This document shows, in pieces, positions 50,073 through 64,000 of a stretch of DNA of 64,000 nt. Position 1 is the first letter of the stretch. Every line of letters begins with the position of its first letter. A program made the position numbers and the translations under genes. The stretch covers positions 32,001 through 96,000 of the forward strand of contig JBFMCP010000001.1 of NCBI GenBank assembly GCA_040754455.1. The letters are read 5' to 3'. This stretch comes from Nitrospirota bacterium (GTDB taxonomy: Bacteria; Nitrospirota; Thermodesulfovibrionia; Thermodesulfovibrionales; Dissulfurispiraceae). Below the pieces are notes generated by a model. That model saw nothing but the letters and a program-made list of their open reading frames with translations. It did not search any database and was not told where the DNA came from.

Positions 50073-50729
50073 TTATACTCCCTGCAGCACCCACTTTACC
50101 CTACCTATTATATTCTCGACCTGGAATTCTTTCAGAGGTATTGAGAAGTCAGGGTAACGCTTGTTTCGTGACCGGAAAATAATAGCCTCTGGCGTTGTAT
50201 AAATCTCTTTCAGCACGGTACCTTCATACGGCAGCCAGATCGCGTAGACTCTCCCGCTCATGATCTCACGGTCAGTCGTATCGATACCCACGAATGCTCC
50301 GTCGTGAATGTAATCTTCCATACTGTCACCGCGCACCTTTATCACTCGAATGGACGGCTTATAAAACTGCTGCGGTATAATGATTGTTTCAATAGGCTCA
50401 ATCTCGACAAGTTGTTTTCCCATTCCGGCTCCCCCCAGAGCATATATATGAACTTCAACAGATCGTTCCTCACCAAGGATCGGCTTCGCTTCTGCGACCG
50501 CCAGCGGCTTCCCTTCTATGAGCATCGGGCCTATACCTTCTAACACCCATTCTTCCCTTGCTCCAAACTCATGATAGAGAATCTTCGCTATAGTTGGAGA
50601 TAATTCAACTTTGCCCGACTCCAGATCCTTCACCTGATACCATTTCAGGCCGATCCTTTTGCCCAGTTCGCTTTGTGTTATACCGATTGATTTTCTAAGG
50701 GTTTTTAGCCTTTTCCCAGGCGTGTCCAT
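50073..50729 (-). CDS. Phage repressor, XRE HTH + S24 peptidase domain
   Basis: RLKTLRK..GITQSELG HTH; GAG cleavage-like site; VRGDSM, VLKE; IIGRV. Confidence 0.92.
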   Translation of the reverse strand: MDTPGKRLKTLRKSIGITQSELGKRIGLKWYQVKDLESGKVELSPTIAKILYHEFGAREEWVLEGIGPMLIEGKPLAVAEAKPILGEERSVEVHIYALGGAGMGKQLVEIEPIETIIIPQQFYKPSIRVIKVRGDSMEDYIHDGAFVGIDTTDREIMSGRVYAIWLPYEGTVLKEIYTTPEAIIFRSRNKRYPDFSIPLKEFQVENIIGRVKWVLQGV

Positions 50730-50745
50730 AGCCGCCTTTTCCCAA

Positions 50746-50788
50746 TAGCTAAATTTCTCTTGACAAAATAGCGAATAATCGCTAAAAT
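50746..50788 (+). promoter_or_regulatory. Early promoter with repressor operators
   Basis: TTGACA-17-TAAAAT (50760-50788); palindrome TAGCGA-N4-TCGCTA 50769-50784; degenerate copy TAGCTA-N4-TCTCTT 50746-50761. Confidence 0.8.
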
Positions 50789-50795
50789 GTCGCCG

Positions 50796-51080
50796 ATGGA
50801 TGAAAATTCAACCAAACCGAAGCACAAATATAGCACAAATAAGGAACTTATAAAAGGCCTTATTTATCTTGCCGGATTCCGCACTGAGACGAGCTTTGCC
50901 AAAGAAGCCCTGGGCACCACCATCAGGCAATTTTCCCGTGTGATCTGCGGTGACCGCTTTGGCGGCGCTATGCGCCTCGCCATCGTCCGGGAGATCCGGA
51001 AGGGGCTTCGCAGAAAAAAGATAAAGGGCATCAGGGTCAAATACGAAGACCTCTGGCCCACGCAGGACGCTGCGGCATAG
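50796..51080 (+). CDS. Cro/Ner-like early regulator
   Basis: Divergent from the repressor; FAKEALG.TIRQFSRVICG HTH-like; ends DLWP; ATG at the predicted +1 (leaderless). Confidence 0.7.
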   Translation: MDENSTKPKHKYSTNKELIKGLIYLAGFRTETSFAKEALGTTIRQFSRVICGDRFGGAMRLAIVREIRKGLRRKKIKGIRVKYEDLWPTQDAAA

Positions 51081-51089
51081 GAGAAAGCA

Positions 51090-51326
51090 ATGGAACGTCC
51101 AGTCGCAATGCAGCACAGAAGAGTGAAAGGTGATCTTCCGGATGAAGATTGGTGCAAAGGGTGGATAGAGGTTGGCCGTTGCATGTACGTCACTCCTTGC
51201 GCCCCAGGCGAGATCGTCGACCTTTACTTCGATCCTCTAAAGCCTGGACTCGTTTTTCTAATTCGGCCAGGCGGCGATTTGCTTGAATTGAAGCCTCCAA
51301 TATTAGAGAGAGGCAGCGAGGTTTAA
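51090..51326 (+). CDS. Phage hypothetical protein
   Basis: SD AGGAG; follows the Ner-like gene; overlaps an antisense ORF. Confidence 0.45.
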   Translation: MERPVAMQHRRVKGDLPDEDWCKGWIEVGRCMYVTPCAPGEIVDLYFDPLKPGLVFLIRPGGDLLELKPPILERGSEV

Positions 51327-51576
51327 CATGGTACTCTTCACAGTCAGTTTCGTAGAAACCGTTCGTCTGACACCTATAAGCGTTCTCGCATCTCGCAAAC
51401 ATATAGAAGATCGTCTTCAGGTCCCTCACGCCATCCAGCTCCGCAGGATACAGAAAAGCCCCGCACTGTTTGCAGATCAGTCTCGGGTACCGCTTCACCG
51501 GCCAGCCCTCGGGAGGATCACACTGGATCACCTCTTTGTGCCCGTAGATGCATCGATAAAGAACCTCGTTTTTCAT
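51190..51576 (-). CDS. Hypothetical Cys-rich (Zn-ribbon) + coiled-coil protein, antisense to the early operon
   Basis: CIYGH..CKQCG pattern, C-terminal LAELEKRVQALE coiled coil. Confidence 0.55.
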   Translation of the reverse strand: MKNEVLYRCIYGHKEVIQCDPPEGWPVKRYPRLICKQCGAFLYPAELDGVRDLKTIFYMFARCENAYRCQTNGFYETDCEEYHVKPRCLSLILEASIQANRRLAELEKRVQALEDRSKGRRSRLGRKE

Positions 51577-51610
51577 GCCCTTAGTTTAAGTGTTTCCCCC
51601 ACAGGGGTCA

Positions 51611-52249
51611 ATGTCAAAAACCTCAACTTTTTCAGGAGTGGATGTGAATAGATTTGAGCAGTACAAGAATTCTTATGAAGTCCTCGACGCCATTATAGAT
51701 GAATGGTGCGACGCCGAGCGTGAGCGCCGCAGGCAGGCCGGTCTGCCGGTCCTCTCGAAGCTTGAGCTTAAGAACGAGCTGGGCCGCGCAGTCGGCCTGG
51801 GCAACGGAGACGATTCCAACTCAGCAGGCAAGGGCATCTACCGCTACTGCAGCGGAGAGACGCCCATATCGATAGAGAAAGCCATCCTCATCTGCAACTA
51901 CATCAATAATAACGAGCTCGTCCAGTGGATGGGCTATCACACCGGCATGCTCATGACGCCCCGCACCGTGATCGAGAGCATAGGGGACCTCGAAGAAGAG
52001 GACATGTTCAGCGAGATCGTGAAATGCCTGAAGGACACCACCAAGTTTGTCGAGACCCTTTCGAGCACCTACCAGTCCAAGGCCAACGCCGGAGCCCTGA
52101 TGGTGATAGAGGAAGTATTCATGCGCGCACTCCTGCAGATGGAAAAAACGCGCCTCATGCTCAAGAAGCTCGTCGAGCGCATGCTCAAGCCCGGCACCCA
52201 GGGCGCACTCTGGTGGACCGAAGAGAAGAAGAAGCGGAAGAGGGGATAG
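51611..52249 (+). CDS. Phage regulatory protein (CII-like), hypothetical
   Basis: Position after cro/ner; IYRYCSG..ISIEKAIL HTH-like then helical domain; start uncertain (51611 or GTG 51644). Confidence 0.6.
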   Translation: MSKTSTFSGVDVNRFEQYKNSYEVLDAIIDEWCDAERERRRQAGLPVLSKLELKNELGRAVGLGNGDDSNSAGKGIYRYCSGETPISIEKAILICNYINNNELVQWMGYHTGMLMTPRTVIESIGDLEEEDMFSEIVKCLKDTTKFVETLSSTYQSKANAGALMVIEEVFMRALLQMEKTRLMLKKLVERMLKPGTQGALWWTEEKKKRKRG

Positions 52250-52251
52250 CG

Positions 52252-52455
52252 ATGGAAACGAACAGGAGAGAAGCGATTATCAGAATGTTCCTAATTTCGA
52301 AACCTTACGTCGTCTCTTACGAGTACCGGAAACAAGCCTATAGGGAAGATAAACCCATACTCGATGAGCTTCTGCGAGAGGGATTGATCGAGCAGGTTAG
52401 CAAGGATAACAAGCGGGTCGTTTTCAGATATATAGGTCCAGAAACTCATCAATAA
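52252..52455 (+). CDS. Phage hypothetical protein
   Basis: 67 aa; fits tightly between neighbours, with SD. Confidence 0.55.
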   Translation: METNRREAIIRMFLISKPYVVSYEYRKQAYREDKPILDELLREGLIEQVSKDNKRVVFRYIGPETHQ

Positions 52456-52466
52456 AGGAGAAGAGT

Positions 52467-53351
52467 ATGCCCAAAAAACAGGATAAGAAGACCGCAAAAA
52501 AAGAAGTGGTGAGAACGCAGAAAAATTCCACAGATGTGGAAAATGTGAAAGATAAGTCGTTGAATTTCCGCGAGACGCTTTCCACAGCTGTGGAAAATTT
52601 CAGCTCTCAGCCTTTGTCTTATATTGAAGGGTTTCTTTCTCGCCGAGAGGTCACCGATTCGTTCAATGAGATGGTCGATGCCCTCGCACTCTATGAGGTC
52701 AAACATCGTGAGCTTTATAGAGAGGCAGGCTTTAAAAACTTCGCTGATTATTGCGAGTCGAGAGGCATTTCCAAAAGCCTGGGCTATGCATGGGCGAAGC
52801 ACGTCGAGGAGATCGGCCCTGATAGCTTCCCGGCCCTCGCCGAGAAAGTCGGTCTCAACCGCACCTTCTTCCGCGCTTTTGCCCTCATCCCTCACGAGAT
52901 ACAGCAGGCCGTTGTGAAAGGCAACAAGATCGAGGTCGACGGCAAAGAGTACGACTTCTCCGCTGATGGCGAATCGGTCAAACAGATTGTCATCGGCCTC
53001 GTGAAGTATGCAGAGAAACAGAAGGAAGAGGCGAGCAAAGAGCTTCAGGAAAAGGACAAGAAGCTGCGCCTCCTGGAGACCGAGAAGAACAATCTCCAGC
53101 GCATCCTGGATGAGTTCAACGAGCTCATCCCCGACAGTGTCGGCGAAACCAAGTGGGCAAAGTCCCGCGCCCTGGCTTCGGCGCTTTACGACAAGTTCGA
53201 TTCTGTCATGAGTTTCATCATCTTCGAGCAGCTCGATCTCAATGACGGCTCAGGCGTTGCCGCCTTAGAGGCCGATCTCCAGCGCATGTACAGCAGGATC
53301 ACCCACAAGATGGAGGAGCTTCAGAAATACAAACGGGGCGAGGCCCGGTAA
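52467..53351 (+). CDS. Phage protein, DUF3102-like with coiled coil
   Basis: L.EVK..ELYREAGFKNFADYC..RGIS motif; directly upstream of the transposase. Confidence 0.65.
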   Translation: MPKKQDKKTAKKEVVRTQKNSTDVENVKDKSLNFRETLSTAVENFSSQPLSYIEGFLSRREVTDSFNEMVDALALYEVKHRELYREAGFKNFADYCESRGISKSLGYAWAKHVEEIGPDSFPALAEKVGLNRTFFRAFALIPHEIQQAVVKGNKIEVDGKEYDFSADGESVKQIVIGLVKYAEKQKEEASKELQEKDKKLRLLETEKNNLQRILDEFNELIPDSVGETKWAKSRALASALYDKFDSVMSFIIFEQLDLNDGSGVAALEADLQRMYSRITHKMEELQKYKRGEAR

Positions 53352-55303
53352 TGAACCCCTCGGGCGAATTCCCCCTCATGAACGCGCAGAATCTGCATCA
53401 GCAGGTATGCCCTCCCGTTGCCGGAGCCGACGCCTCTGACGGCGTCCCCGAAAAAGCCCGGCAGGAGGCCATTGCCCGTCTCACGCTCCTACGCATGCGC
53501 GACGAATATCGGGCCGCGCATCCAGGACGGAAAAAGACCGAAGTAGACAAAGAATTCGTCGATTCATACAACACCGGGCTCATCTATCAGCAACTCCACT
53601 CAATAGTGGGCAAGACCTCAGTGCAGACACTGTATCGTTGGGACAGCGAGCTCGATGGCACGCAGGACTGGACCCGCCTTGTACCTCGCTATTATCTGAA
53701 GGACAAAACGCCTCGGCTCAACCCCATCGAAGAACGCGTGTTCCTCGCCTTCCTTCTGAGCCCTAACAAGATACCGGTCGGCACCGCCACCAGATTCACC
53801 AGGCTCCTGCTGCAGCAGCGCGGCTATAAGACGGATAAATCAGATATGACCTTCCGCCGCTACGCCGAAGACTTCATGGCAAAGCACTACGATCTCTGGA
53901 CCCTCATGCGCGACGGCCAGAAAGCGCTCAGGGACAAAGTAGAGCCCTACATCAAACGCGACCCCTCTGTGCTTAATGTTGGAGACGCCCTTGTTGCAGA
54001 CGGCCATAGGCTCAACTTCCAGATCATCAATCCCTTCACCGGCAAGCCTTGCAGGGCTTGCATGGTGGCCTACATCGACTGGAAATCTTACGACCTCGCC
54101 GGGTACGAAATCATGGTCGAGGAAAACACCCAATGCGTTGCCTCGGCAATGCGCAACGCCATACTCCGGCTCGGCAAGACCCCAAAGGTCGCCTACCAGG
54201 ACAACGGCAAGGCATTCAAGGCCCGCTTCTTCCTGGGCTCCCCGAGCTTCGAGGAAGCGGGCTTCTACGGCCTCTTCGGCCGACTGAATATCGTCCCGCT
54301 CTTCGCTGCCCCTTACAACGCCCGCGCAAAGATCATCGAAAGGTGGTTTAAGGAGTTTTCTAACACCTTTGAGCGGCTCTTTCCGAGCTATGTCGGCTCA
54401 TCCATAGCAGACAAACCCGCCTATATGCTCAGGAACGAAAAGTTCCACAAAGCGCTTCATAACGAGTACATCCCCACAATCGAAGAGACCGTCCACCTCC
54501 TGGAGGCCTGGCTCGAATTCCACCGCTCACAGGAGTGCCCTCACGTTAAAGGCAAGTCGATCGGCCAGGTATTCGACGAAGGCAAAGGCCCCGGCGTTGA
54601 TGTCAATGCGCTTGACGACCTCATGATGGACGCCAGGATCACCCGCATCGATCGCAACGGCATCCGGTTCCTGGGCGCCGACTATTACGATGACAATCTC
54701 TACGGCCTCAAAGAGCAGGTCGTCATCAAATACAGCCTCTTCGACCTTTCCTATGTGAAGGTCTTCGCCATGAATGGAGAGTTCATCTGCCTGGCCCAGC
54801 GCATTATGCCGGTCCATCCGCTCGCACGCATCACCGGCACTGCTACAGATTACGAAGCAGTCAAGCGCGGCATCGCACAGCAGAAACGCCTCGAACGTCA
54901 GACCGTCAAACTTGCGAAGGAATACAACAGAGCAGGCGGAGCCGTCGAGCTTGACTGGCAGAAGGTCACCGAGATCACGCCACGCATAGTCGAGAAGCTT
55001 GAGCTGGAGGGCATTGCACTTCCTGCTATTGAAGAGCATATTCCCGACGAAGCGGTAAGCACCGAGCCTATCACCGAGAGCCTTGAGCCCAGAGAGGAGT
55101 CGATGGAAGTAACACGATTGGAGCCGCTGAAGAGGCCGTTCTTCGAGACGAATACTGAGCGCTACGAGTGGCACCTCAAGCATGGCATCTTTACCGACGA
55201 AGATGAAGCCTGGTGTGTATGGTTCAGAACAACAGATGAGTTCAGGATGCTTTATTCGGCATTTCAAAATCAGGGAAAGGAGGCAGCCCAAATTAAAAGT
55301 TAA
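53351..55303 (+). CDS. Mu-type DDE transposase (A protein)
   Basis: SVQTLYRW HTH, VADGH, YQDNGKAF, PYNARAKIIERWF, Mu-transposase C-terminal region. Confidence 0.93.
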   Translation: MNPSGEFPLMNAQNLHQQVCPPVAGADASDGVPEKARQEAIARLTLLRMRDEYRAAHPGRKKTEVDKEFVDSYNTGLIYQQLHSIVGKTSVQTLYRWDSELDGTQDWTRLVPRYYLKDKTPRLNPIEERVFLAFLLSPNKIPVGTATRFTRLLLQQRGYKTDKSDMTFRRYAEDFMAKHYDLWTLMRDGQKALRDKVEPYIKRDPSVLNVGDALVADGHRLNFQIINPFTGKPCRACMVAYIDWKSYDLAGYEIMVEENTQCVASAMRNAILRLGKTPKVAYQDNGKAFKARFFLGSPSFEEAGFYGLFGRLNIVPLFAAPYNARAKIIERWFKEFSNTFERLFPSYVGSSIADKPAYMLRNEKFHKALHNEYIPTIEETVHLLEAWLEFHRSQECPHVKGKSIGQVFDEGKGPGVDVNALDDLMMDARITRIDRNGIRFLGADYYDDNLYGLKEQVVIKYSLFDLSYVKVFAMNGEFICLAQRIMPVHPLARITGTATDYEAVKRGIAQQKRLERQTVKLAKEYNRAGGAVELDWQKVTEITPRIVEKLELEGIALPAIEEHIPDEAVSTEPITESLEPREESMEVTRLEPLKRPFFETNTERYEWHLKHGIFTDEDEAWCVWFRTTDEFRMLYSAFQNQGKEAAQIKS

Positions 55304-55328
55304 AAAAAAAAGGCTGCCTTTGGCAGCC
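55302..55328 (-). terminator. Hairpin + U10 terminator on the antisense strand between transposase and ATPase
   Basis: A10 followed by GGCTGCC-TTT-GGCAGCC. Confidence 0.55.
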
Positions 55329-55360
55329 CGAATCTTAAAGGTTAAGGAGATGATAGCACA

Positions 55361-56044
55361 ATGAGAAAAATATTTGCCCGTACCAGCAATGTGGGGGCTT
55401 TTGTTTCCGCGATGACACGGCTGCTAAAGCGCGAGGACGGTATTCCCGGAATGTCATTGATTTTTGGCGAGCCTGGACTTGGAAAGACGAGGACAACGCT
55501 CTGGTGGTGCGCTCAGAATGACGGCGTATTCATTCGCACAAAAAAGCTCATGACAGGCAGATGGTTACTTGAGGAGATAGTTGCCGAGCTCGGAGAGGCT
55601 CCGATGCGGAGGACTTCGGATTTATTCAGGCAAGCGGTTGATCAGCTCCTTGAAAGGCCGAGGACGCTCTTCATAGACGAGGCAGATTATCTTGCCCATG
55701 ACGCACGGGTTATCGAGACGCTCAGAGATTTGCACGACACAACAGGCACGCCTCTTGTGCTGATAGGCATGGATCAGGCGGACAAAAAGCTCATGCGCTT
55801 TAAGCATCTCTATGATAGGTTCTCAGAGATAGTCAGATTCCATCCTCTATCTGAATCGGATGTCGAATCAGTAGCCGAGCAGATGTGCGAGGTCAAGCTC
55901 TCTGATGATGCTGTCTCTTATATACATAATCAGGCAAACCGCTTCCGCAAGGTCGTTATCTGGTTGTATCGCTGCGAATCTATCGCTAAGGTGAATTCTT
56001 TGAAAGAAATTAACGCTGCGCATCTGCAAGGGGTGCGGAAATGA
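55361..56044 (+). CDS. AAA ATPase, transposition B protein
   Basis: GEPGLGKT Walker A, LFIDEAD Walker B, LRDLHD, LIGM. Confidence 0.9.
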   Translation: MRKIFARTSNVGAFVSAMTRLLKREDGIPGMSLIFGEPGLGKTRTTLWWCAQNDGVFIRTKKLMTGRWLLEEIVAELGEAPMRRTSDLFRQAVDQLLERPRTLFIDEADYLAHDARVIETLRDLHDTTGTPLVLIGMDQADKKLMRFKHLYDRFSEIVRFHPLSESDVESVAEQMCEVKLSDDAVSYIHNQANRFRKVVIWLYRCESIAKVNSLKEINAAHLQGVRK

Positions 56045-56397
56045 CAGTCATATTACCGAGAGATAAAAGCGAGGCAAGGCAGGGCGAGGCAAGGCAAGGG
56101 GGCGGAGTTCGCTCCGCCCAACAAAAAATTTGGGCAGTCATTAGAGGGCTGCGTGAGTTTGGTTTTGAAGAGGTCTCCGTGCTTGCTGAATTACCTTATA
56201 GCGCAGTATCAAGCTACCTAAAGTCGCTATATCATGCCGGATATATCCGGCAGGCCGGCAAAAGAAAAGAGGCGGACGGAAAGCGAAAAAACATCTGGAG
56301 GCTTGCAAAAAACAGCGGGCCTCGGGCGCCAATCCCTTGCAAATGCCTCTATGACCCTAATATTGACGGGCTTGCGGAGGTCAAAGATGTGGATTGA
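56041..56397 (+). CDS. Phage winged-helix-like hypothetical protein
   Basis: IW..IR.LR.F, YLKSL..AGY, WRL..NSGPRAP; conserved-looking post-B gene. Confidence 0.7.
   Translation: MTVILPRDKSEARQGEARQGGGVRSAQQKIWAVIRGLREFGFEEVSVLAELPYSAVSSYLKSLYHAGYIRQAGKRKEADGKRKNIWRLAKNSGPRAPIPCKCLYDPNIDGLAEVKDVD
56068..56099 (+). repeat. Pentamer GGCRR tandem repeat inside a CDS
   Basis: AGCGA GGCAA GGCAG GGCGA GGCAA GGCAA GG (encodes EARQGEARQG). Confidence 0.75.
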
Positions 56398-56701
56398 TAT
56401 TCTGCGGAAAGAGGTCGCTGCAAAGGGGCCACGAATGGTAGCGCGGGAATTGGGCATCAGCAGAAGCACTGTTGACATGGTAACTCAAAACAAATATCAG
56501 GCATCAACTGTGAAGATCGAGGAGCGCGTGAGGAAAATCTATGGCAGGGACGGAAAAGTTGAATGCCCTATTAAAGGGCTTATAACGCCGATTGAATGCG
56601 CTGAAAATTTTAAAAAGGCAAAGGCTATAGGCCTCAAGGCGTCTAATCCCGAGACATTGCGTTTGTACAAAACCTGTAAGGCATGCAGTGTGAGGAGGTA
56701 G
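56387..56701 (+). CDS. Phage HTH protein with Cys motif
   Basis: VARELGISRSTV..KY; V.CP..C..C..C; SD GGAGG. Confidence 0.75.
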   Translation: MWIDILRKEVAAKGPRMVARELGISRSTVDMVTQNKYQASTVKIEERVRKIYGRDGKVECPIKGLITPIECAENFKKAKAIGLKASNPETLRLYKTCKACSVRR

Positions 56702-56703
56702 CC

Positions 56704-57162
56704 ATGCAGAAGCCAATCGACAAACGGCAGATCCGCAAGATCCACACCCTGAAGAGCGCACTCAAGCTCTCTGATGATGAGTACCGCGAGAAGGTGCAGG
56801 AGATCCACGGCTTCAGCGGCACATCCAAGGACCTCACCTACGACGAAGCTGAAACGCTTATACGGGCCATGGAGTCCGAGGCGCTTTCAAAAGGAGTATG
56901 GCAGCGGCGCGTGTCCAGAAAATCGAAATACGAGTATCTGGGCGATCGTGAGGGCATGGCTACGCCCAAGCAGCTACGCATGATCGAAGCGATATGGAAA
57001 GACGTTTCTCGGTACCACGCCGAGGACGAACGGGCCAGGGCGCTGCGCTCGTTCCTCTTCAAGCGCTTCAAGGTCTCCGACGTGAAGTTCATCACGTCAC
57101 GGCAGGCGTCAAAGATCATCTGGTCCTTATTCAATATGTCGAGGGAGGGAAAGCAACAATGA
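56704..57162 (+). CDS. GemA / Mu gp16 family (DUF1018) protein
   Basis: QIRKIH..K..L.L.DDEYR, SKDLT..EA, TPKQLRMIEAIW, ALRSF. Confidence 0.88.
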   Translation: MQKPIDKRQIRKIHTLKSALKLSDDEYREKVQEIHGFSGTSKDLTYDEAETLIRAMESEALSKGVWQRRVSRKSKYEYLGDREGMATPKQLRMIEAIWKDVSRYHAEDERARALRSFLFKRFKVSDVKFITSRQASKIIWSLFNMSREGKQQ

Positions 57163-57344
57163 TATGCATCTATCGGTTCAAATGTAAAGATGGATCATAT
57201 GAATGCCTCAGCGCGGTGCACTGGAAGCGGAAGTGCGGGGCCTTTCATGTGCTGAGGTGTATCGCAGCAGGGTTTGTGGTCGATGTAAAGCACGCAGTAC
57301 GCATCAGGCTGTACCGGCTGAAAAGAAGGCTATCAAGGAGGTGA
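57159..57344 (+). CDS. Phage hypothetical protein
   Basis: ATGA overlap with gemA, SD GGAGG. Confidence 0.5.
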   Translation: MICIYRFKCKDGSYECLSAVHWKRKCGAFHVLRCIAAGFVVDVKHAVRIRLYRLKRRLSRR

Positions 57345-57351
57345 AAATCGC

Positions 57352-57654
57352 ATGCAGATCGTAGTCATTATTCCCGACGCACATGCAGAGGACCTGAAGA
57401 ACTGGCACAAGGGTCTGGCACAATTCAAGCGCGGCCTCGCTGAAAGCTCCAAGAGCGAGGCGTCCAGGTCAATACTCAAAGCGCAGGCCGATATGTCCGA
57501 CTCTATCGCGGCAAACATAGAGCGGATGCAGCTCGCCGACGGCAACATCCACATCACCCTGCAGCATCTCCTTGAGCCGCACATAAAGAAGCACGGTAAA
57601 GAGACGGTGCAGTCAGTGGTGATGGATTGTATCAAACAGGGCTGGCGGATGTGA
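57352..57654 (+). CDS. Phage hypothetical protein
   Basis: Strong SD AAGGAGGTG; in-operon. Confidence 0.65.
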   Translation: MQIVVIIPDAHAEDLKNWHKGLAQFKRGLAESSKSEASRSILKAQADMSDSIAANIERMQLADGNIHITLQHLLEPHIKKHGKETVQSVVMDCIKQGWRM

Positions 57655-57676
57655 AGTAGTGGCTAACGGAGGACCA

Positions 57677-57865
57677 ATGGTAACAGACATGGGAGTGAAC
57701 ATCGTAGTCAGCATGATCGCGGTGCTTGGACAGTTGACAGTTGTAGATATTCTGCACGGCCTTGCCGCGATTGCAGGAGTCGCGGGCCTCTGCATTGCGC
57801 GCTACATCGGCGCTCTGGGGGCTGTGCTCTACAACTGCGCCTGGGTCTGGCGATCATCATGGTGA
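57677..57865 (+). CDS. Phage small membrane protein
   Basis: SD GGAGG; hydrophobic 62 aa. Confidence 0.5.
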   Translation: MVTDMGVNIVVSMIAVLGQLTVVDILHGLAAIAGVAGLCIARYIGALGAVLYNCAWVWRSSW

Positions 57866-57909
57866 TGTACTTAATGCTCGGATAAGGAGAAAAAGGAGGA
57901 ATCAGGATC

Positions 57910-58398
57910 ATGACGACAATGGCAGCAAAGTTGGGTAAAGCGGGGGCGGTGGAAACCGTCACGCTCAAGAAAGGCAGAGAGACAACAACGATATCGGTGC
58001 CGAGGCTTGCGGATACCATCAGATCGGCCCGCGGCCTCACGATCGAGATGAAGAGCCTGGAGCCCGCGCTCAAGGAGTACAGGGATTACATTGCGTCCGT
58101 GGCAAAGGATTACATCGATGCAAGCGGGACGCTCACATTCATTATCGACGGCATCCGATGCAAGGTGACCTTCGGCTACGAGTGCGTAATTCCGGAGGAG
58201 CATGTGGCTGAGGTCAGGAGGCTCCTCGGAGAGCGTTTTGATGACCTGGTCAGGACAAAGATCACCCATAGCGGTACCTCCAAGCTCATCGACATGGCGG
58301 CGGATGGAGACCGGGGAAAGGCAATCGCTGGCTGTCTGGTCATCAAAGAGAAAACGCCGGGGGTTTCCTTCGAAGATGAGCTGAACAAGCAGAGGTGA
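57910..58398 (+). CDS. Phage hypothetical protein
   Basis: Strong SD, phage-like codon use. Confidence 0.7.
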   Translation: MTTMAAKLGKAGAVETVTLKKGRETTTISVPRLADTIRSARGLTIEMKSLEPALKEYRDYIASVAKDYIDASGTLTFIIDGIRCKVTFGYECVIPEEHVAEVRRLLGERFDDLVRTKITHSGTSKLIDMAADGDRGKAIAGCLVIKEKTPGVSFEDELNKQR

Positions 58399-58625
58399 GC
58401 GGCATGAGCACCGACGCATTGGCGTGTAATTATCTGAAATGCCGTCTTTGCTCCTGGAAGACCGTAAAGCGGCACACTCGCAATAACGGCTCTTTCAGCG
58501 ACATCGAGAATGCCTTTAATAGGCTTCGGACGCACTACTATCAGAAACATCCGGAGGTAATGAGAATGATCGAAGAGAGGGAGGCTGCAGATGCTATATC
58601 CGGGGTGCAACATGCTGAAGCGTAA
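58395..58625 (+). CDS. Phage hypothetical protein, C2H2-like Zn motif
   Basis: CRLCSW...H...H; GTGA overlap. Confidence 0.55.
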   Translation: MSGMSTDALACNYLKCRLCSWKTVKRHTRNNGSFSDIENAFNRLRTHYYQKHPEVMRMIEEREAADAISGVQHAEA

Positions 58626-58848
58626 GGTCGAGATTGGCTACAGGAAGGCAATACGGGCCACAGATAAGCAGCGCCGGTGCGGTAACTGTGCGAACCGGGT
58701 ATGGGCAGATATCTACGCCTGCAGCGGCGGTGAAGTCGTAGGGCAAGGATGGCGCTGCAAGGTGGTCGGAGTTCAGAACTCCCGGAAGTATTCCGTTGCT
58801 GAGGATCACGTGTGCAATCATTTTGAGGCGAAAAAGGAGACGGCATGA
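58612..58848 (+). CDS. Phage small Cys-rich protein
   Basis: RCGNCA..C..VCNHF. Confidence 0.6.
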   Translation: MLKRKVEIGYRKAIRATDKQRRCGNCANRVWADIYACSGGEVVGQGWRCKVVGVQNSRKYSVAEDHVCNHFEAKKETA

Positions 58849-59114
58849 AGGTCAAGCTCTTCTTTGCGTGGTATGACGGATGGGTCGGCTACTACTGGGA
58901 CCGGTATGAGCGTGCTCTCTATGTCTGTCCGCTGCCTTGGGTAGTGATCAAGCTCTCACGCCCTCCCAAAGAAGAGCAGGAAAGTGAGGTCAGGCGGATC
59001 TGCAAAAAGTGCAGAGCCTATAAACGCCCCAAGTGCAGACGGGAGAAAAAGTTCGTCGGCAAGTTTGACGAAGGCTGTGAACATTTCAAAGCAAAGGAGG
59101 AAGCAAGGTCATGA
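58845..59114 (+). CDS. Phage hypothetical protein
   Basis: FFAWYD.WVG.YWD..LYVCPLP motif + C..C..C..CEHF; ATGA overlaps. Confidence 0.65.
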   Translation: MKVKLFFAWYDGWVGYYWDRYERALYVCPLPWVVIKLSRPPKEEQESEVRRICKKCRAYKRPKCRREKKFVGKFDEGCEHFKAKEEARS

Positions 59115-59386
59115 CAAAGACGGAGTTGATTAACAAGATGGCAGGAGATGCAGGAATTTCAAAGAAGGACGCAGAGAGCGCGATGAATGCCCTGGTGAGC
59201 GGCATCCAGAACGCGCTCAAAAGCGGAGACAAGGTCCTGATATCAGGACTGGGGACTTTCAAGGTCAAAGAGCGGGCGGCACGGAAAGGCCGCAATCCGA
59301 AGACCGGCGAGGAAGTAACGATAGCGGCGAGCAAGAAGGTTGCCTTCTCAGCCTCAAAAGAGCTTAAAGAGGCTGTGCAGGGATAA
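59111..59386 (+). CDS. hup: HU-family DNA-binding protein (phage encoded)
   Basis: MTKTELI, GLGTFKV..RAARKGRNPKTGE, FSASKELK. Confidence 0.95.
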   Translation: MTKTELINKMAGDAGISKKDAESAMNALVSGIQNALKSGDKVLISGLGTFKVKERAARKGRNPKTGEEVTIAASKKVAFSASKELKEAVQG

Positions 59387-59558
59387 CATGAATTCGGCGG
59401 TGTCCGTATTTAAAACCATCGGTGAGGAGTTAATACAGGCGAAAACAACCGAGCCGCCGTGCAGGCTCATAGGCCGAAACCACCATCTCCCTGACATCAG
59501 GAAAATGGTGGTCGCAGCGTGAGGCGCTGCCTGATGACGGCCAGGATGGAGGGCACAC

Positions 59559-59816
59559 ATGAACGATTTTGAAAGAGCTATACAGCGCATGGAAAAAGTA
59601 ATAGCGGCCTGTGATGAACTGATAGCAATGGCAAAGAAGGATATCTCAGATTTACAGAAGCGCAAAAAGAGAGCCCGAATATTGATTGAAGGCTTTAAAG
59701 TGCTCCCTAATGCTGAGCAAGATGAATATAGGAATCTGGCAAAGAAAACCGCCATAGAGATCGCCGATGGAGAGTTGAAGATGGTTTCCTGCATGGGCGT
59801 CGGGATAAGGATTTAA
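59559..59816 (+). CDS. Phage hypothetical protein
   Basis: SD GGAGG; helical 85 aa. Confidence 0.6.
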   Translation: MNDFERAIQRMEKVIAACDELIAMAKKDISDLQKRKKRARILIEGFKVLPNAEQDEYRNLAKKTAIEIADGELKMVSCMGVGIRI

Positions 59817-59817
59817 A

Positions 59818-60144
59818 GTGAGCATGAAGCGGATCAAGAAGCTATATGCCGAGATGCCGTCCTTCACCTGTCTTGAGGGATGCACGGAGTGCTGCGGTCC
59901 GATTCCTTTCACCCGCGATGAATGGAAACGGGTTAAGGATAAGAGAAAGGCCACGAGTGTGGATTGTCCTTATTTCCTGAACGGGCGGTGTGACATCTAT
60001 GCCGATAGGCCGTTCATCTGCCGTCTATACGGTGCTGCTGAGGATTTGAAATGTCCTTACGGCTGCAGACCCGAGAAGCTTCTGACAGCGGAAAAATCCG
60101 CAGAACTAACCAAGGCATACCTGAAGTTGATGCACGAGGGTTAA
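59818..60144 (+). CDS. YkgJ-family cysteine-cluster (Fe-S/Zn) protein
   Basis: C..GC.ECC, CPYF..GRC.IY.DRPFICRLYG. Confidence 0.85.
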   Translation: MSMKRIKKLYAEMPSFTCLEGCTECCGPIPFTRDEWKRVKDKRKATSVDCPYFLNGRCDIYADRPFICRLYGAAEDLKCPYGCRPEKLLTAEKSAELTKAYLKLMHEG

Positions 60145-60149
60145 GGGAG

Positions 60150-60896
60150 ATGAGCACTGCATTGCACATACAGCAGAGAGCGCAGAGGGTACAGTTGATC
60201 TGTGAGGCATGCCATAAGCCTTTTTCCGTCTCTCCGCATCGCGTCAGGGATGGGAAAGTGGTGCGCTTTTGTTCCCGGTCTTGCAGGAACAAGCTGCCGT
60301 GTCTGCGCAGTAGACCTCGCAAATACGAGTTCACTGCTGAAATGGATGCCATGGTCCGTAAGGTCTACGAGAACAACCTGGGCAAGCGGGGCCTTGTGAA
60401 TGCAGTGGCCAGGAAATTGGGAGTGCCGAGATGGAAAGTCTCTCGCCGAGCTGCTGAGATCGGAGCATATGTACCGCTCAAGAAAGAGCCTGAGTGGTCG
60501 GAGAGTGAGCTGAGGATTCTTCAGAAGTATGCTCATACCACTCCCCTATTCATTCAAAAGAAATTGAAGAGGGCCGGGTTCCACAGGAGCGAGACGGCCA
60601 TTACACTCAAGCGCAAGCGGATGAGGCTCCTGCAGAATTTAGACGGCATGTCGGGTCGGCAATGCGCTGAATTCTTTGGGGTGGATTCTCATTGGATTAC
60701 AGACAAGATAGAGAGAAATCTTTTGAAGGCTGAGAAGAGGCAAACCGCGAGAACAGAGAAGCAAGGGGGCGATATCTATTACATCAAAGAAAAAGATATA
60801 CGCCAATTTATCATCGATAACCCTGACCTGATCGATCTGAGAAAGGTGGAGAAGTTCTACTTTATCGAGCTTCTGTCGAAGGGGGGGGTACATTGA
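60150..60896 (+). CDS. Phage DNA-binding protein (Zn finger + Myb/HTH-like repeats)
   Basis: CEACHKPF..FCSRSC; WSESELRIL; AEFFGVDSHWI. Confidence 0.65.
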   Translation: MSTALHIQQRAQRVQLICEACHKPFSVSPHRVRDGKVVRFCSRSCRNKLPCLRSRPRKYEFTAEMDAMVRKVYENNLGKRGLVNAVARKLGVPRWKVSRRAAEIGAYVPLKKEPEWSESELRILQKYAHTTPLFIQKKLKRAGFHRSETAITLKRKRMRLLQNLDGMSGRQCAEFFGVDSHWITDKIERNLLKAEKRQTARTEKQGGDIYYIKEKDIRQFIIDNPDLIDLRKVEKFYFIELLSKGGVH

Positions 60897-60905
60897 AGTG
60901 CGGCG

Positions 60906-61259
60906 ATGGAGCAAGCGAGATTTGATTTTGATTTAACGGATGAGGAGCGCATGGTTCTCGCAGCATTGCGAGAGGGCAAGAGAAATGCCATTTTGGGAGC
61001 TGAGATCGTGAAATTAACAGGGATAGGATACGACAGAGTCAGACAGGTAATCTCTCATCTCGTCAATGATCACTATTATCTGATCGCAAGCTATTCGCGT
61101 GGCTATTACATCCCCACAAGTGCCGAGGAGGTTCTGGAGACCACTCGGAGCCTGCGGCATAGAGGTATCTCTATATTGGTAAGAGCGGCACGGCTGCAGA
61201 AAACCAGTGTCGAGGAAATATTCAAGCAATCAAGGATGGAGTTTCATGCGATGGTATGA
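60906..61259 (+). CDS. Phage winged-helix protein
   Basis: GKRNAI..EI..RVRQVISHL..IAS..GYYIP..EE. Confidence 0.75.
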   Translation: MEQARFDFDLTDEERMVLAALREGKRNAILGAEIVKLTGIGYDRVRQVISHLVNDHYYLIASYSRGYYIPTSAEEVLETTRSLRHRGISILVRAARLQKTSVEEIFKQSRMEFHAMV

Positions 61260-61557
61260 AGAATTAAAGATAGAGGAGATCGTCGAGCAGCTCGAAAAGG
61301 ACCCGCGCCTGGTGTATGAGCACGCCGGACTGCATGTGCTGATGATCCTATGGGAGAAGCTTCCCGGCATCTCCATCTATCTGTCCGAGAAGAGGCTCTT
61401 CGACATCAAGCGGACTTATGTCCGGCAGAAGTACAATCCGGATGATCCCCGCTATTCGGTCAAAGCTCTCGCGGCCCGGCTCGGGGTGTCTGAAAAATTC
61501 GTACAGACGGCGTTGTATGAAAAAGAAGACAACGATAAGCAGAATCAGCTTTTCTGA
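61246..61557 (+). CDS. Mor/C-family transcription activator
   Basis: L..L.E..PG..IY, VKALAARLGVSEKFV HTH, QNQLF tail; last early gene. Confidence 0.75.
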   Translation: MRWYEELKIEEIVEQLEKDPRLVYEHAGLHVLMILWEKLPGISIYLSEKRLFDIKRTYVRQKYNPDDPRYSVKALAARLGVSEKFVQTALYEKEDNDKQNQLF

Positions 61558-61582
61558 CAAGGGGCGTCTGAGCGTAAGGCGC

Positions 61583-62077
61583 TCACTGGTGAGGCTTTAG
61601 ATATTCCTTAATCGCCTCTTTAATCTCCTCAATATCGCTATCAGTAAGCTTTAGGAAAGGCCTCGCCGGTATCGTCACCTTTCTGCCTCTGCCGGCCTTC
61701 CCTCCGAACTGATGAATGGCGGCATAGACTTTATTGGTGCCTACTCGGGCGGATCTGGCATCCGATTTCCTGCTGATCGAGGCGGCGAGCTGCCCGGAGT
61801 CCTGGAGGATCTTCCGTCCGGCGAGCTTTTTGGCGATGCTCTTCCTCACCGCGCCCTTTTTGGTGTTCCACTTCCTTGCCCCTCCGAAAGCGCCCATTAT
61901 GGTCGATGCTGCAAGCGGTCTCCACCGGGGCCGTCCTTCGGCCTCGAAGTTCTCCTCCACCGCATCGTGCATGATTTCGGCTATCCGCCGCATCACCGGC
62001 GTCATATTGGTGCTGCGCCTCTGCAGCTCGGTGAGAAACCGCAGCGCCTCTTTATCTTTTACACTGATTTTAATCAT
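61583..62077 (-). CDS. Phage virion morphogenesis protein (Mu gpG-like)
   Basis: ENFEAEGRP.W.PL, ILQDSGQL..SI, VGTN..YAAIHQFGG, IPARPFL. Confidence 0.92.
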   Translation of the reverse strand: MIKISVKDKEALRFLTELQRRSTNMTPVMRRIAEIMHDAVEENFEAEGRPRWRPLAASTIMGAFGGARKWNTKKGAVRKSIAKKLAGRKILQDSGQLAASISRKSDARSARVGTNKVYAAIHQFGGKAGRGRKVTIPARPFLKLTDSDIEEIKEAIKEYLKPHQ

Positions 62078-62091
62078 GACCGCGCCTCCTG

Positions 62092-62100
62092 TGGTAAAAT
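62092..62100 (+). promoter_or_regulatory. Extended -10 promoter pointing against the head operon
   Basis: TGgTAAAAT, 6-7 nt upstream of the structured element. Confidence 0.55.
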
Positions 62101-62106
62101 AGAATC

Positions 62107-62188
62107 AAAGCCTGTGGAGGCAAGGCCACCTTATCTGGGGCCGCTAACGGACCGGGTTATCCGGCAGGATGCTCCACGGGTTTATTTT
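62107..62188 (+). ncRNA. Candidate structured small RNA convergent with the MuF-nuclease gene
   Basis: 12-bp closing stem 62108-62119/62172-62183 with two G-U pairs (plus strand only), two internal hairpins, U-rich tail, upstream promoter. Confidence 0.55.
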
Positions 62189-63510
62189 GTATAGAGCAGC
62201 GTGCCTGTCCTCTGCGCATCGAGATACTTCAGCTTGTCCGGCGAGAATGCCGTCGTCCCCTGCCATATATCGTCCACCAAATCAAAGACCACATATCCGG
62301 TTGCCTTGTCTGCCTTGTCCTGGTAGATGCCGATGTACCTTTTGCAGAGCCTGGTCTTATCTTTTCCCTTCACCCAGGTGAGCCAGATCTCCACGGGATC
62401 TTTAATGGTGTCCGCCAATAGTTTGAGATAGACCTCCCGGTCATCTCTCAGTACCTTATAGCCGCCTTTTAAACGATCTATAAACAGATCCTCTGAGATC
62501 ACCACCGGGTCATTGATCACGTCGCGGTAGACGATGGGCTTGCCGGCGCTGGTGCCAAACTCGCCGAGGAATGCGTTGACGTACTCTTCATTGCTCCACT
62601 TGCTCTTCTGATGAGGCGGCAGCAGCATATCCTTCTTCAGCGGTTTCGCAGGGAGCTTGTCGATCGGCGGCTTCTCGGAGATCGCAGCGCCGATAGTCTT
62701 GTAGCCTCTCTCCATCTCGGAAGGGTCAAAGGGCTTCGGGGTGAACGGCTCAAATGCCGCCTTGCCCGGATTGTAGTTCCATCCTGCATCCGGAGCGATC
62801 TTCATGCCGGTGACAGGATCTCTATAGGCCGTCACCTCCGTGAGCTCTCCGGTCTTCTTCGATATGAGTGCGTCCTGAGAGGAGAGCTTGCCCTCCGATG
62901 ATTCGACCGTCAGCCGTCTGCTCTTGAGATTGCCCTTGCTCAGTGCTCTTACTCTGCATCGGCATCCCCAGCCGTTCGGCGGGTAATGAGAGTTCCAAAA
63001 AGGATCGTCATATCTGAAGACCTTGCCGTGCAGCGCTGCATGGGCCGGTCTCGTGCGTGAGTCCATCACCGCGACATATTGCCAGTAGGGGCGATCATCG
63101 ATATTCTCCATAAACTCCTTATAGCGCCCGGCCATGTATGCGGTCTGCAGATTCGTCTGGTAGATCGTCCTCAGCCGGCGCGGCGAGCCGAGCTGCACTT
63201 CAGACGCCTTGCCCTCGGCATCCATTATCATCTTTTTGCCCCACCAGCCCTTTGCCTGGAGCCTGGTCGTGAGCTGCTTGCGAAACTCCTGCAGCGTAAG
63301 CCCTTCATTGAGAGACTTCTGCACCATGCCCCTGATGTCCTGAAGGATGTCCATGCGCATGACCTTTGCGACTGTGAAGGCTTTGGCATGGGCCTCCTGC
63401 CATGTATCCCACCAGTCCCAGCTGAAGGTATAGCCCTTGGATTTGAAGTACTCGATGGCCTTTTCGGGAGGCAGGCCTATCGCATAGAGGAGATCAGGCT
63501 TTGTCGGCAT
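62182..63510 (-). CDS. MuF (gpF) head morphogenesis protein with C-terminal PBECR2-like nuclease domain
   Basis: AFTVAK, L..KGWWG, RL.TIYQTN..AY.AG, YVAVMDSRTRP.H, YPPNGWGCRC, WNYNPG; C-terminal ISEDLF..LLADTIKDPVEIW..WQGTTAF..R.G.LLY. Confidence 0.88.
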   Translation of the reverse strand: MPTKPDLLYAIGLPPEKAIEYFKSKGYTFSWDWWDTWQEAHAKAFTVAKVMRMDILQDIRGMVQKSLNEGLTLQEFRKQLTTRLQAKGWWGKKMIMDAEGKASEVQLGSPRRLRTIYQTNLQTAYMAGRYKEFMENIDDRPYWQYVAVMDSRTRPAHAALHGKVFRYDDPFWNSHYPPNGWGCRCRVRALSKGNLKSRRLTVESSEGKLSSQDALISKKTGELTEVTAYRDPVTGMKIAPDAGWNYNPGKAAFEPFTPKPFDPSEMERGYKTIGAAISEKPPIDKLPAKPLKKDMLLPPHQKSKWSNEEYVNAFLGEFGTSAGKPIVYRDVINDPVVISEDLFIDRLKGGYKVLRDDREVYLKLLADTIKDPVEIWLTWVKGKDKTRLCKRYIGIYQDKADKATGYVVFDLVDDIWQGTTAFSPDKLKYLDAQRTGTLLYTK

Positions 63511-64000
63511 TCAGTCTTCCCCACAGCTCGGCCACGAAAATCGCACGTGCGAGCATCTCTTCGATTGCCGACGTATCCATGTTCGGATACGCCTCGGTGA
63601 GCTTTTCCATTATCTCCTCCGGAGAGCTGCCCTCATTTATAAGGTCAATAACAGGCTTTAAAACGCCTTCTACCTGCTTTTGCAATTCCTCGGGTGAGAT
63701 GGATTCGATAAGGTCATCTATGGCCTGCTGATCGGGAAAGAGTTCAGTTGAGCGCTCTGCGAACTCGGCCTCTGTGCTTCCGGGCTTCCGGGCTTCCGGA
63801 CTGACGACCTCGATGTCGCCTTCCTCAAATCCATATTCCCGCATGAAATATTGCTTCGTGAACTTCACCTGGCCGGTGTCGCTGAGAGTCTTGTCCCTCT
63901 CGGCCAGCGTCTTGTCCACGTCTTCTTCCTCGTAGAGCGAAAAAACCGGGCGCTCTCCACTGCCGAAGTTTAGCTCGAAGATCCACCCGATGAGCGTGTT
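63494..64000 (-). CDS. Portal protein Mu gp29 / DUF935 (3' part, truncated by the window)
   Basis: Open from the window edge: NTLIGWIFELNF..AERD..YF.R.YG..FAE..YP.MD...L.RAIFVAELWGR. Confidence 0.85.
   Translation of the reverse strand, partial: NTLIGWIFELNFGSGERPVFSLYEEEDVDKTLAERDKTLSDTGQVKFTKQYFMREYGFEEGDIEVVSPEARKPGSTEAEFAERSTELFPDQQAIDDLIESISPEELQKQVEGVLKPVIDLINEGSSPEEIMEKLTEAYPNMDTSAIEEMLARAIFVAELWGRLNADKA

Follow-up and report, generated by a model that had tools for sequence, protein, structure and literature searches.

A predicted, conserved small-RNA gene behind the MuF-PBECR2 gene of a Mu-like prophage

Polymorphic toxins, like toxins delivered by phages, are believed to require a protein that confers immunity. 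How, then, would a cell tolerate a phage-encoded nuclease next to which no immunity protein is found? This question is raised by a stretch of 64,000 nucleotides (nt) from a Nitrospirota bacterium (GenBank assembly GCA_040754455.1, contig JBFMCP010000001.1, positions 32,001 to 96,000; the whole stretch is hereafter called the window), the right end of which is part of a Mu-like prophage. Its MuF head protein, gpF, ends in a PBECR2 domain, a predicted RNase, and its gene is separated from the gpG gene on the same strand by nothing but a gap of 104 nt (62078-62181). An earlier reading of the bare letters of the window, hereafter the original prediction, had placed in this gap, on the strand opposite to gpF, a promoter and a multi-hairpin RNA that might inhibit, decoy or guide the nuclease. 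Judged from sequence comparison, the gap holds a real, conserved small-RNA gene which is tied to BECR-type MuF domains across phyla. As to its role we favour, with confidence just short of even, that the RNA is an immunity factor, a pseudo-substrate or a decoy for the packaged predicted RNase.

The gap between gpF and gpG

Both domains of gpF exceed the curated Pfam cut-offs, namely Phage_Mu_F (PF04233) at residues 57-187 with an E-value of 6.8e-30 (104.5 bits, cut-off 29.6) and, C-terminal to it, PBECR2 (PF18810) at residues 313-440 with an E-value of 2.1e-28 (99.4 bits, cut-off 27.1). Arg109, Glu125, Arg142, Thr170 and Arg185 (R109, E125, R142, T170, R185), which are conserved in the family and candidates for catalytic residues, are all present in the protein of the window. 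A VIA wide search with an AlphaFold2 (AF2) model of gpF residues 250-442 (pLDDT 77.7) returned as its top five matches exclusively BECR RNases or toxins with Z between 3.4 and 3.9: colicin E5 (3ao9, 3.9), colicin D twice (1tfk, 3.8; 5znm, 3.7), an enteric toxin-antitoxin toxin (7vd7, 3.5) and CdiA-CT NC101 (5i4q, 3.4). These matches, which are weak since VIA rates any Z below 5 as such, are consistent with the Pfam assignment. The BECR-type domain of the original prediction is thus recovered by Pfam, its structural likeness to colicins E5 and D being a weak one. BECR enzymes such as colicins E5 and D cleave tRNA anticodon loops. A 2026 preprint (10.64898/2026.08.28.747851) places a Lys-His pair in the active site of BECRs of the colicin-like kind, and Iyer et al. 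2017 (PMC5512222) predict the PBECR-MuF domain to be an RNase that is packaged and injected.

It had also been predicted that gpF carries a long C-terminal extension and that gpG follows so closely as to leave no room for an immunity gene. The extension proved to be the PBECR2 domain, and no open reading frame (ORF) of at least 20 amino acids (aa) is contained in the 104-nt gap; seven such ORFs overlap the gap, each of them extending outside. Nor does any small immunity ORF directly follow gpF, the next gene being gpG. What the gap does hold is a plus-strand match to a covariance model, R1 (62105-62189, 93.4 bits), whose parts are listed in Table 1. The RNA family has the overall form of a three-way junction with a closing stem P1 of 10-12 base pairs (bp), a junction J1/2 reading GCAA or GA, and the two hairpins P2 and P3. 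In the window, P1 comprises two G-U pairs, the minus-strand equivalents of which are A-C mismatches. P1 is directly followed by the U-run UUUAUUUU; a U-run follows P1 in all members of the family, where it is encoded opposite the MuF stop codon and the codons just before it (Thr-Lys-Lys). The extended -10 motif, the 12-bp stem with its two plus-strand G-U pairs, the two hairpins and the end over the gpF stop codon are all located where they had originally been placed. The sequence UUAUC, which had been noted at the loops of both hairpins, is indeed seen at both loops in the window; family members do not share its second occurrence, located in the loop of P3.

Evidence for the RNA gene comes mainly from comparison. 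We analysed 160 MuF loci from viral and genome collections and 31 more loci obtained by a query with the PBECR2 part. In close PBECR2 homologues (53-74% identity over the C-terminal 193 aa) the same element is present directly after the stop codon and antisense to the MuF gene. R1 detects 13 loci at E <= 1e-16 which represent 12 distinct sequences. In their alignment 96.0% of 272 pair cells are paired and both-side changes are observed in 14 of 23 pairs, including 11 of the 12 pairs of P1, while none of 500 shuffles reaches the observed pairing and covariation. If the partners are slid by 1-3 columns, pairing amounts to only 34-54%. The alignment was fitted to the model, which favours structure; an independent segment-wise count agrees. 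Hence, a covarying structure beside homologous domains, as the original prediction had anticipated, is found. The per-pair table yields 14 G-U cells as opposed to 3 A-C among the unpaired cells. Because these counts would reverse on the sense strand of gpF, the functional strand is the plus strand of the window.

R1 matches occur only directly after close PBECR2-MuF homologues, so that the linkage to BECR-type MuF domains is exclusive among the loci compared, which include more than 150 other MuF loci. A set of 63 other MuF loci contains no match and, outside the close PBECR2 loci, a set of 100 loci contains a single weak stray (E 0.46). Within the 3.27-Mb host genome there is one match only, and among 151 genomes of the same order one other genome has the element, again between gpG and a gpF of 67% identity. 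In line with the original prediction, no such element was found behind toxin-less MuF genes in the MuF loci compared. A circularly permuted form of the junction, which has its termini in P3 and in which P1 is capped by a loop, occurs alone in loci L003/L169 and, in a more diverged version, in L188 and L189. In three loci (L085:2718-2895, L182:2156-2333 and L185:2135-2312) one MuF gene is followed by a tandem pair consisting of the permuted and then the normal form. As far as sequences can tell, the permuted form points to a folded module rather than to a linear antisense sequence.

The small RNA would be transcribed independently from its own sigma-70-type extended -10 motif. As this motif ends 7-8 nt before P1 in the window as well as in L179, its closest relative, the start of the RNA is predicted near 62107; an alternative suggested by the promoter scan, ATGACC-18-TAGAAT, would place the start inside P1. 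We counted as promoter motif either an extended -10 or TTGAC-N15-19-TAnnnT in 39 distinct gaps after long MuFs (at least 370 aa). It is found on the antisense strand of 24 gaps and on the sense strand of one, with three of the antisense matches falling inside the RNA and being probably spurious. Several loci possess the near-consensus TTGACA-N16-17-TGnTATAAT, the -35 element of which lies over the start region of gpG. The convergent promoter expected beside homologous domains is thus a recurrent feature of these gaps. The closing stem together with the U-run overlapping the gpF stop codon would form the 3' end of the transcript.

Table 1. Features of the locus and of the prophage, in window coordinates
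Feature	Position	Strand	Basis or remark
Predicted gene of a structured small RNA of ~80 nt (class a), on the strand antisense to the gpF-gpG operon	~62107-62188	plus	covariance model R1
Extended -10 TGgTAAAAT of the small RNA	62092-62100	plus	sequence; sigma-70-type
P1, 5' strand of the 12-bp closing stem	62108-62119	plus	sequence and fold
P2 hairpin, invariant loop region ACCUUAUC-N-GG	62124-62142	plus	family alignment
J2/3, conserved junction GYNAACRNA	62143-62151	plus	family alignment
P3 hairpin, stem kept (double changes in 2/5 pairs), loop not conserved	62152-62164	plus	family alignment
J3/1, conserved junction YAGGAUG	62165-62171	plus	family alignment
P1, 3' strand, overlapping the gpF stop codon (62182-62184)	62172-62183	plus	sequence and family covariation
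U-run UUUAUUUU, likely 3' end	62181-62188	plus	encoded opposite the gpF stop codon and the Lys codon(s) before it
gpF, 442 aa, MuF head protein ending in the predicted RNase PBECR2	62182-63510	minus	ORF and Pfam
PBECR2 domain of gpF, residues 313-440	62191-62574	minus	Pfam; AF2 model
gpG Shine-Dalgarno	62085-62090	minus	abuts the RNA promoter
gpG type protein, Phage_tail_S	61583-62077	minus	ORF and Pfam
Mu transposase MuA (Mu-transpos_C)	53351-55303		early region of the Mu-like prophage
S24/HTH (helix-turn-helix) repressor	50073-50729		early region of the Mu-like prophage

Known RNA classes do not account for the gap. At E <= 10 Rfam gives no match in it, and cmscan of positions 61500-62700 yields six weak matches (best E 0.13), all of them outside the gap. 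None of the curated models of known self-cleaving ribozymes and riboswitches (Rfam 15) matches in the gap, and ARAGORN reports no tRNA gene in the window. A hammerhead-like ribozyme, considered on account of the permuted three-way junction, was rejected as the junction strands do not fit the hammerhead core and Rfam shows no match. A peptide gene was likewise discarded: the AGGAUG that is conserved in the family opens a 70-aa plus-strand frame (62169-62381) which lacks a spaced Shine-Dalgarno sequence and runs, past the U-run, antisense through gpF. The stretch of the gap is single-copy in the genome according to blastn, and this, together with the single covariance-model match, rules out a repeat or mobile element. 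The phage collection contains no DNA match to this region of the window. That P2 might mimic a host anticodon loop stays speculation, no similar loop being present in the 48 host tRNA genes called by aragorn, a set in which no tRNA-Ile is assembled. We would like to mention that this set includes a 95-nt tRNA-Cys(gca) with an unusually long body as well as a tRNA-SeC.

Apart from the repressor and MuA, the early region of the prophage (50073-61557) encodes a MuB-like AAA ATPase, GemA, an HU-like protein, a CxxCxxCC protein and a zf-FCS protein. The minus-strand packaging module, consisting of small and large terminase, portal, gpF and gpG, is convergent with the early operon, which ends at 61557. 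This module (61583-64000 and beyond; G000:C1:93583-99048) is inverted with respect to the remainder of the Mu-like prophage and divergent from the genes for protease, capsid and tail, the first of which lie near C1:99767.

The slot behind MuF genes in other phages

To describe the position directly after the MuF gene in general, we sorted 140 distinct loci by the length of MuF into long (at least 370 aa, 53 loci) and short (less than 335 aa, 86 loci), with one locus of intermediate length. A gap of 60-170 nt is found after 32 of the long MuFs and after 3 of the short ones. Up to 20 nt separate MuF and gpG in 5 long-MuF and 46 short-MuF loci, more than 170 nt in 8 and 33 loci, respectively, and gpG was not found in 8 and 4 loci. 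The 33 widely spaced short-MuF loci (e.g. L054, L057-L065, L108-L137), mostly from Gastranaerophilales and rumen metagenome-assembled genomes, show ~800-960 nt to gpG, which is room for one extra gene. In another locus (L067:13-2292) the MuF gene, of 760 aa, is split by an intein as indicated by Hint_2 and Intein_splicing matches.

The type of RNA in the gap differs by the C-terminal domain of MuF. Further PBECR2 clades (L006/L082/L200; L020/L021/L174/L193; L175; L128) possess closing-stem RNAs of their own. A second class, b, consists of MuFs of 403-430 aa whose C-terminal domain is unnamed in Pfam and whose RNA is cloverleaf-like, with compensatory changes in 9 of 20 predicted pairs and one U-G pair that never varies; a kissing contact would be possible between CUCCC and GGGAG in its loops. 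According to hhalign, the class-b domain bears a weak relationship to MuF_C (58% probability, E 9.6e-5 over 67 columns), and with PBECR2 only the shared MuF-end motif aligns. Searching 401 genomes of the phylum of the window with PF18810 we obtained eight assessable ORFs which end in PBECR2, and behind all eight an antisense -10 motif followed by stem-forming sequence is discernible by eye, these sequences not having been folded. In L009 the RNA follows MuF despite an inverted gpG, and in L069 another ORF separates the RNA from gpG; the position of the RNA therefore follows MuF rather than gpG.

In MuF_C-type phages the slot contains a tRNA-like gene, again antisense to MuF. The Rfam tRNA model (RF00005, cut-off 29 bits) scores 46.0, 37.9 and 34.2 bits in 3 of 11 MuF_C-type loci searched; in the remaining loci of this type GGUUCGA-type T arms can be recognised by eye. 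ARAGORN calls a tRNA in one of 34 loci, with an "anticodon" of 2 nt, and none in the other 33. These RNAs have an acceptor stem as well as D and T arms, and a longer hairpin, visible as 24-26-nt inserts in the Rfam alignments, replaces the anticodon arm. In Escherichia coli NZ_CP027340 (L225:1735-1814) the RNA gene comprises 80 nt and starts 2 nt after the stop codon of F on the opposite strand. The gpF-gpG region of this Mu-like prophage, RNA gene included, has matches in 230 of 5426 complete E. coli genomes, and in 9 of 10 cases among the matches listed the RNA is labelled tRNA-OTHER by the annotation pipeline PGAP. Further enterobacterial and Pasteurella Mu-like prophages with an antisense tRNA-like gene between F and G are represented by L163, L138, L143, L158 and L227. 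For the tRNA decoy of the original prediction, these genes in the slot of related phages are support of an indirect kind. One might suspect from these tRNA-like genes, and from the cutting of anticodon loops by colicins E5 and D, the top structural matches of the domain, that the RNA is a replacement tRNA which takes over decoding from a host tRNA that the nuclease has cleaved. Yet the RNA of the window is no tRNA, and its tRNA-like relatives have a long hairpin where a tRNA has its 7-nt anticodon loop, which makes this explanation scarcely credible.

Presence of the RNA goes along with integrity of the domain. No gap follows the long MuFs of phage Mu, Yersinia phage Tongde, MP22, Shewanella MuM16-1, L133 and L080, and the MuF_C domain of all six is devoid of the H-x-DS-x-KH...G and NAY motifs. 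Both motifs are intact in 8 of 8 relatives with a tRNA-like RNA (L163, L143, L138, L155, L158, L050, L157 and Pasteurella Pmp9). The picture is ambiguous for Ralstonia L229, where the motif is partial and no RNA is seen, and for L160, where the motif is likewise partial but the RNA is present. Within the PBECR2 family, Cupriavidus L023/L090 lack the otherwise conserved R109 and T170 and exhibit a gap of 11 nt. According to Iyer et al. 2017 (PMC5512222), MuF-C of Mu is an inactive PBECR while its orthologues are probably active. Where MuF is fused to other domains, i.e. ART (L074), DRAT (L094) or unknown ones (L013, L140, L049, L104), small ORFs occupy the slot, several of them antisense. With 66-107 aa, those after the MuF genes of L074, L094, L013 and L140 are candidates for immunity proteins. 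According to Jamet et al. 2017 (PMC5576092), 89.4% of 191 MuF toxin genes have a small ORF behind them, which the authors interpret as an immunity gene.

The same linkage of RNA and domain would be seen if the RNA were a working partner of the nuclease instead of its inhibitor, be it as cargo, cofactor or guide which is packaged or injected with gpF, or as a tRNA-like decoy directed against host defence nucleases; the RNase would then process the RNA or act together with it. Iyer et al. 2017 (PMC5512222) consider that PBECR domains may target RNA-based defences of the host and that inactive ones bind RNA, and a phage anti-CRISPR complex of protein and t(m)RNA fragments is known (PMC11662646). 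A cofactor of an inactive, RNA-binding domain is, however, not predicted to disappear when the conserved, presumed catalytic motif is lost, as the RNA does, and other MuF toxins hold immunity-sized small ORFs in the very same slot. We therefore consider a working partner quite improbable.

Possible modes of action

Under the reading that we favour, the RNA would be the cognate partner of the PBECR2 domain of gpF, which would bind it as a folded RNA, either as a pseudo-substrate or as a decoy. Until gpF is packaged, the bound RNA would prevent the domain from doing damage in the lysogen and the producing cell, taking the place of an immunity protein, and it might perhaps also protect lysogens from RNase injected by sibling phages. 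We rank binding to the protein above antisense action because the G-U pairs preserve the fold of the RNA itself and its junctions and loop are invariant, and because permuted forms exist and relatives retain the D and T arms of tRNA.

Nevertheless, the arrangement of the genes invites a different explanation, that of a type I-like cis-antisense RNA which pairs with the intercistronic gpF-gpG mRNA and, by cleavage or block of translation, lowers gpF (and gpG) in the lysogen, so that the nuclease protein itself would never be bound. The RNA gene faces gpF in convergent orientation, with an overlap at the 3' end of gpF. As gpF and gpG lie on one strand and no terminator was found between them, the RNA would be complementary over its full length to a late co-transcript, which renders antisense action possible and speaks against our favoured reading. 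The original prediction had held that overlap with the coding sequence by a few nt argues against silencing; this argument is flawed since a late gpF-gpG mRNA, if there is one as we assume, covers the whole RNA gene. YUNR-like turns occur in antisense RNAs, and the P2 loop indeed has a CUUA (YUNR-like) turn; convergent 3'-overlapping antisense antitoxins occur in Bacillus type I systems. Furthermore, the joint loss of the RNA and of conserved domain residues fits an antisense RNA equally well. Complementarity, though, is automatic in such an arrangement and leaves unexplained why junction and loop nucleotides are invariant across 53-74% identical homologues. Antisense pairing equally fails to explain the strand-specific G-U pairs that preserve the fold, the circular permutation and the tRNA-type D and T arms of the enterobacterial versions. 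On balance, an antisense RNA appears unlikely to us.

Several observations weigh against the RNA as an immunity factor. The prophage might have a gene for an immunity protein at some other place. Structural support for the BECR fold is weak, all VIA Z values being below 4, and a Foldseek search of the PDB with the domain model gave no match at E <= 0.001. The promoter in the window is an extended -10 without a usable -35, the ATGACC upstream lying only 13 nt from TAAAAT. A simple terminator scan, limited to loops of 3-8 nt, found no canonical terminator at the locus, and public reads for the region stem from DNA metagenome runs only, with no RNA run among them. Folded as a single sequence, the plus strand reaches -36.6 kcal/mol (z -2.33; 2 of 200 shuffles are as good) and the minus strand -29.0 kcal/mol (z -1.48; 11 of 200), which is only modestly above chance, so that the weight rests on the family. 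In contrast to the slot RNAs of the enterobacterial relatives, the RNA of the window, with two hairpins inside a 12-bp stem, is not tRNA-like. PBECR2 domains 68-75% identical to that of the window (L191, L192, L194) carry a different three-way-junction RNA, as does L195, for which identity was not computed; the class of RNA hence does not strictly track the domain. Finally, in a kin-controlled test of the association between long MuF and gap, comprising eight independent pairs on supported branches, the gap changed in the same direction in ~4.5 pairs, in the opposite direction in ~1.1 and not at all in ~2.4 (median sign-test p 0.375). The association is thus not significant in this underpowered test, and the raw counts overstate the number of independent events. 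In L191, L192 and L195, two hairpin loops of the RNA carry the complementary 7-mers AGUCAGC and GCUGACU, a possible kissing contact recognised by eye.

On the strength of the weak promoter in the window and of the non-significant kin-controlled test one could go further and deny the element any dedicated function, taking it for a structured spacer or bidirectional terminator at the boundary of a cassette brought in by the C-terminal domain, with a promoter motif arisen by chance. Indeed, P1 is flanked by an A-rich run on one side and by the U-run on the other. A terminator, however, needs neither a conserved three-way junction nor invariant loops or permuted variants. Chance promoter motifs are difficult to reconcile with the strand bias of 24 against 1 in 39 gaps and with the near-consensus promoters of several loci, and in relatives the slot is occupied by tRNA-like genes. 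We regard a mere spacer or terminator as very improbable.

Returning to the RNA as an immunity factor, the reading may be extended beyond PBECR2. An entire superfamily of BECR RNases packaged by phages (PBECR2, MuF-C and related) may have its cognate immunity factors in structured RNAs, some of them tRNA mimics without anticodon loop, which would be made from constitutive antisense promoters in lysogens and serve as uncleavable pseudo-substrates. This generalisation we hold to be possible rather than likely. If it is true, Mu-like phages from groundwater bacteria to E. coli would possess an RNA-based toxin-immunity (kin-recognition) system. The tolerance of producers towards these enzymes would be accounted for by a conserved RNA gene in the immunity slot, which, with gpF, would make up a toxin-antidote pair of RNA and protein with a new architecture. 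A function would also fall to the genes labelled "tRNA-OTHER" in the annotation of E. coli Mu-like prophages. In addition, the RNAs could be used as handles for finding what these RNases naturally cut, or as specific RNase inhibitors. Fusions of PBECR RNases to MuF or portal proteins have been known since 2017 (Iyer et al. 2017, PMC5512222). In the literature, subscription journals and supplements being outside the scope of the search, we found no description of an RNA partner of MuF/PBECR proteins or of the Mu-like "tRNA-OTHER".

Comparison with known systems

In type III toxin-antitoxin systems (ToxIN, CptIN, TenpIN) an endoRNase toxin is neutralised by a structured RNA which binds the protein. 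Like there, the partner considered here is an RNA gene without ORF which adjoins the gene of a (predicted) RNase. Unlike there, the candidate toxin has a predicted BECR fold, is not ToxN-like and is fused to a virion protein. The RNA is single-copy rather than a tandem repeat array, with two unlike (permuted) copies in three loci, and it is encoded downstream and antisense, while type III RNAs lie upstream on the same strand and in the same operon.

Type I systems with a convergent, 3'-overlapping antisense RNA are exemplified by txpA/RatA and bsrG/SR4 of Bacillus, and lambda oop is an antisense RNA of a phage. The RNA described here resembles the 3'-overlapping type I antitoxins in that it is convergent over the 3' end of gpF, whose co-transcription with gpG is presumed, and in that its promoter looks constitutive. 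It differs from them since its counterpart is a 442-aa MuF-PBECR2 protein and not a small hydrophobic membrane peptide, and since the RNA has a conserved fold of its own as well as permuted or tRNA-like forms. Likeness to tRNA (RF00005) is confined to the enterobacterial slot RNAs, which score 34-46 bits against the cut-off of 29 and differ from tRNA by the missing anticodon loop, whereas the RNA of the window matches no tRNA model.

With the MuF polymorphic toxins (Jamet et al. 2017, PMC5576092; Zhang et al. 2012) the locus shares the N-terminal MuF, the variable C-terminal toxin, the position in the packaging module and an immunity slot directly after the toxin gene; unlike theirs, this slot fits no ORF and holds a covarying RNA gene. 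The domain architecture is the same as in the PBECR-MuF fusions among the polyvalent proteins of Iyer et al. 2017 (PMC5512222). The parts of that paper which deal with PBECR and MuF name neither an immunity factor nor an RNA partner; what is new here are the linked RNA genes. By their defining features, the RNA and gpF stand outside both type III and type I, and yet the pair probably works like one of them.

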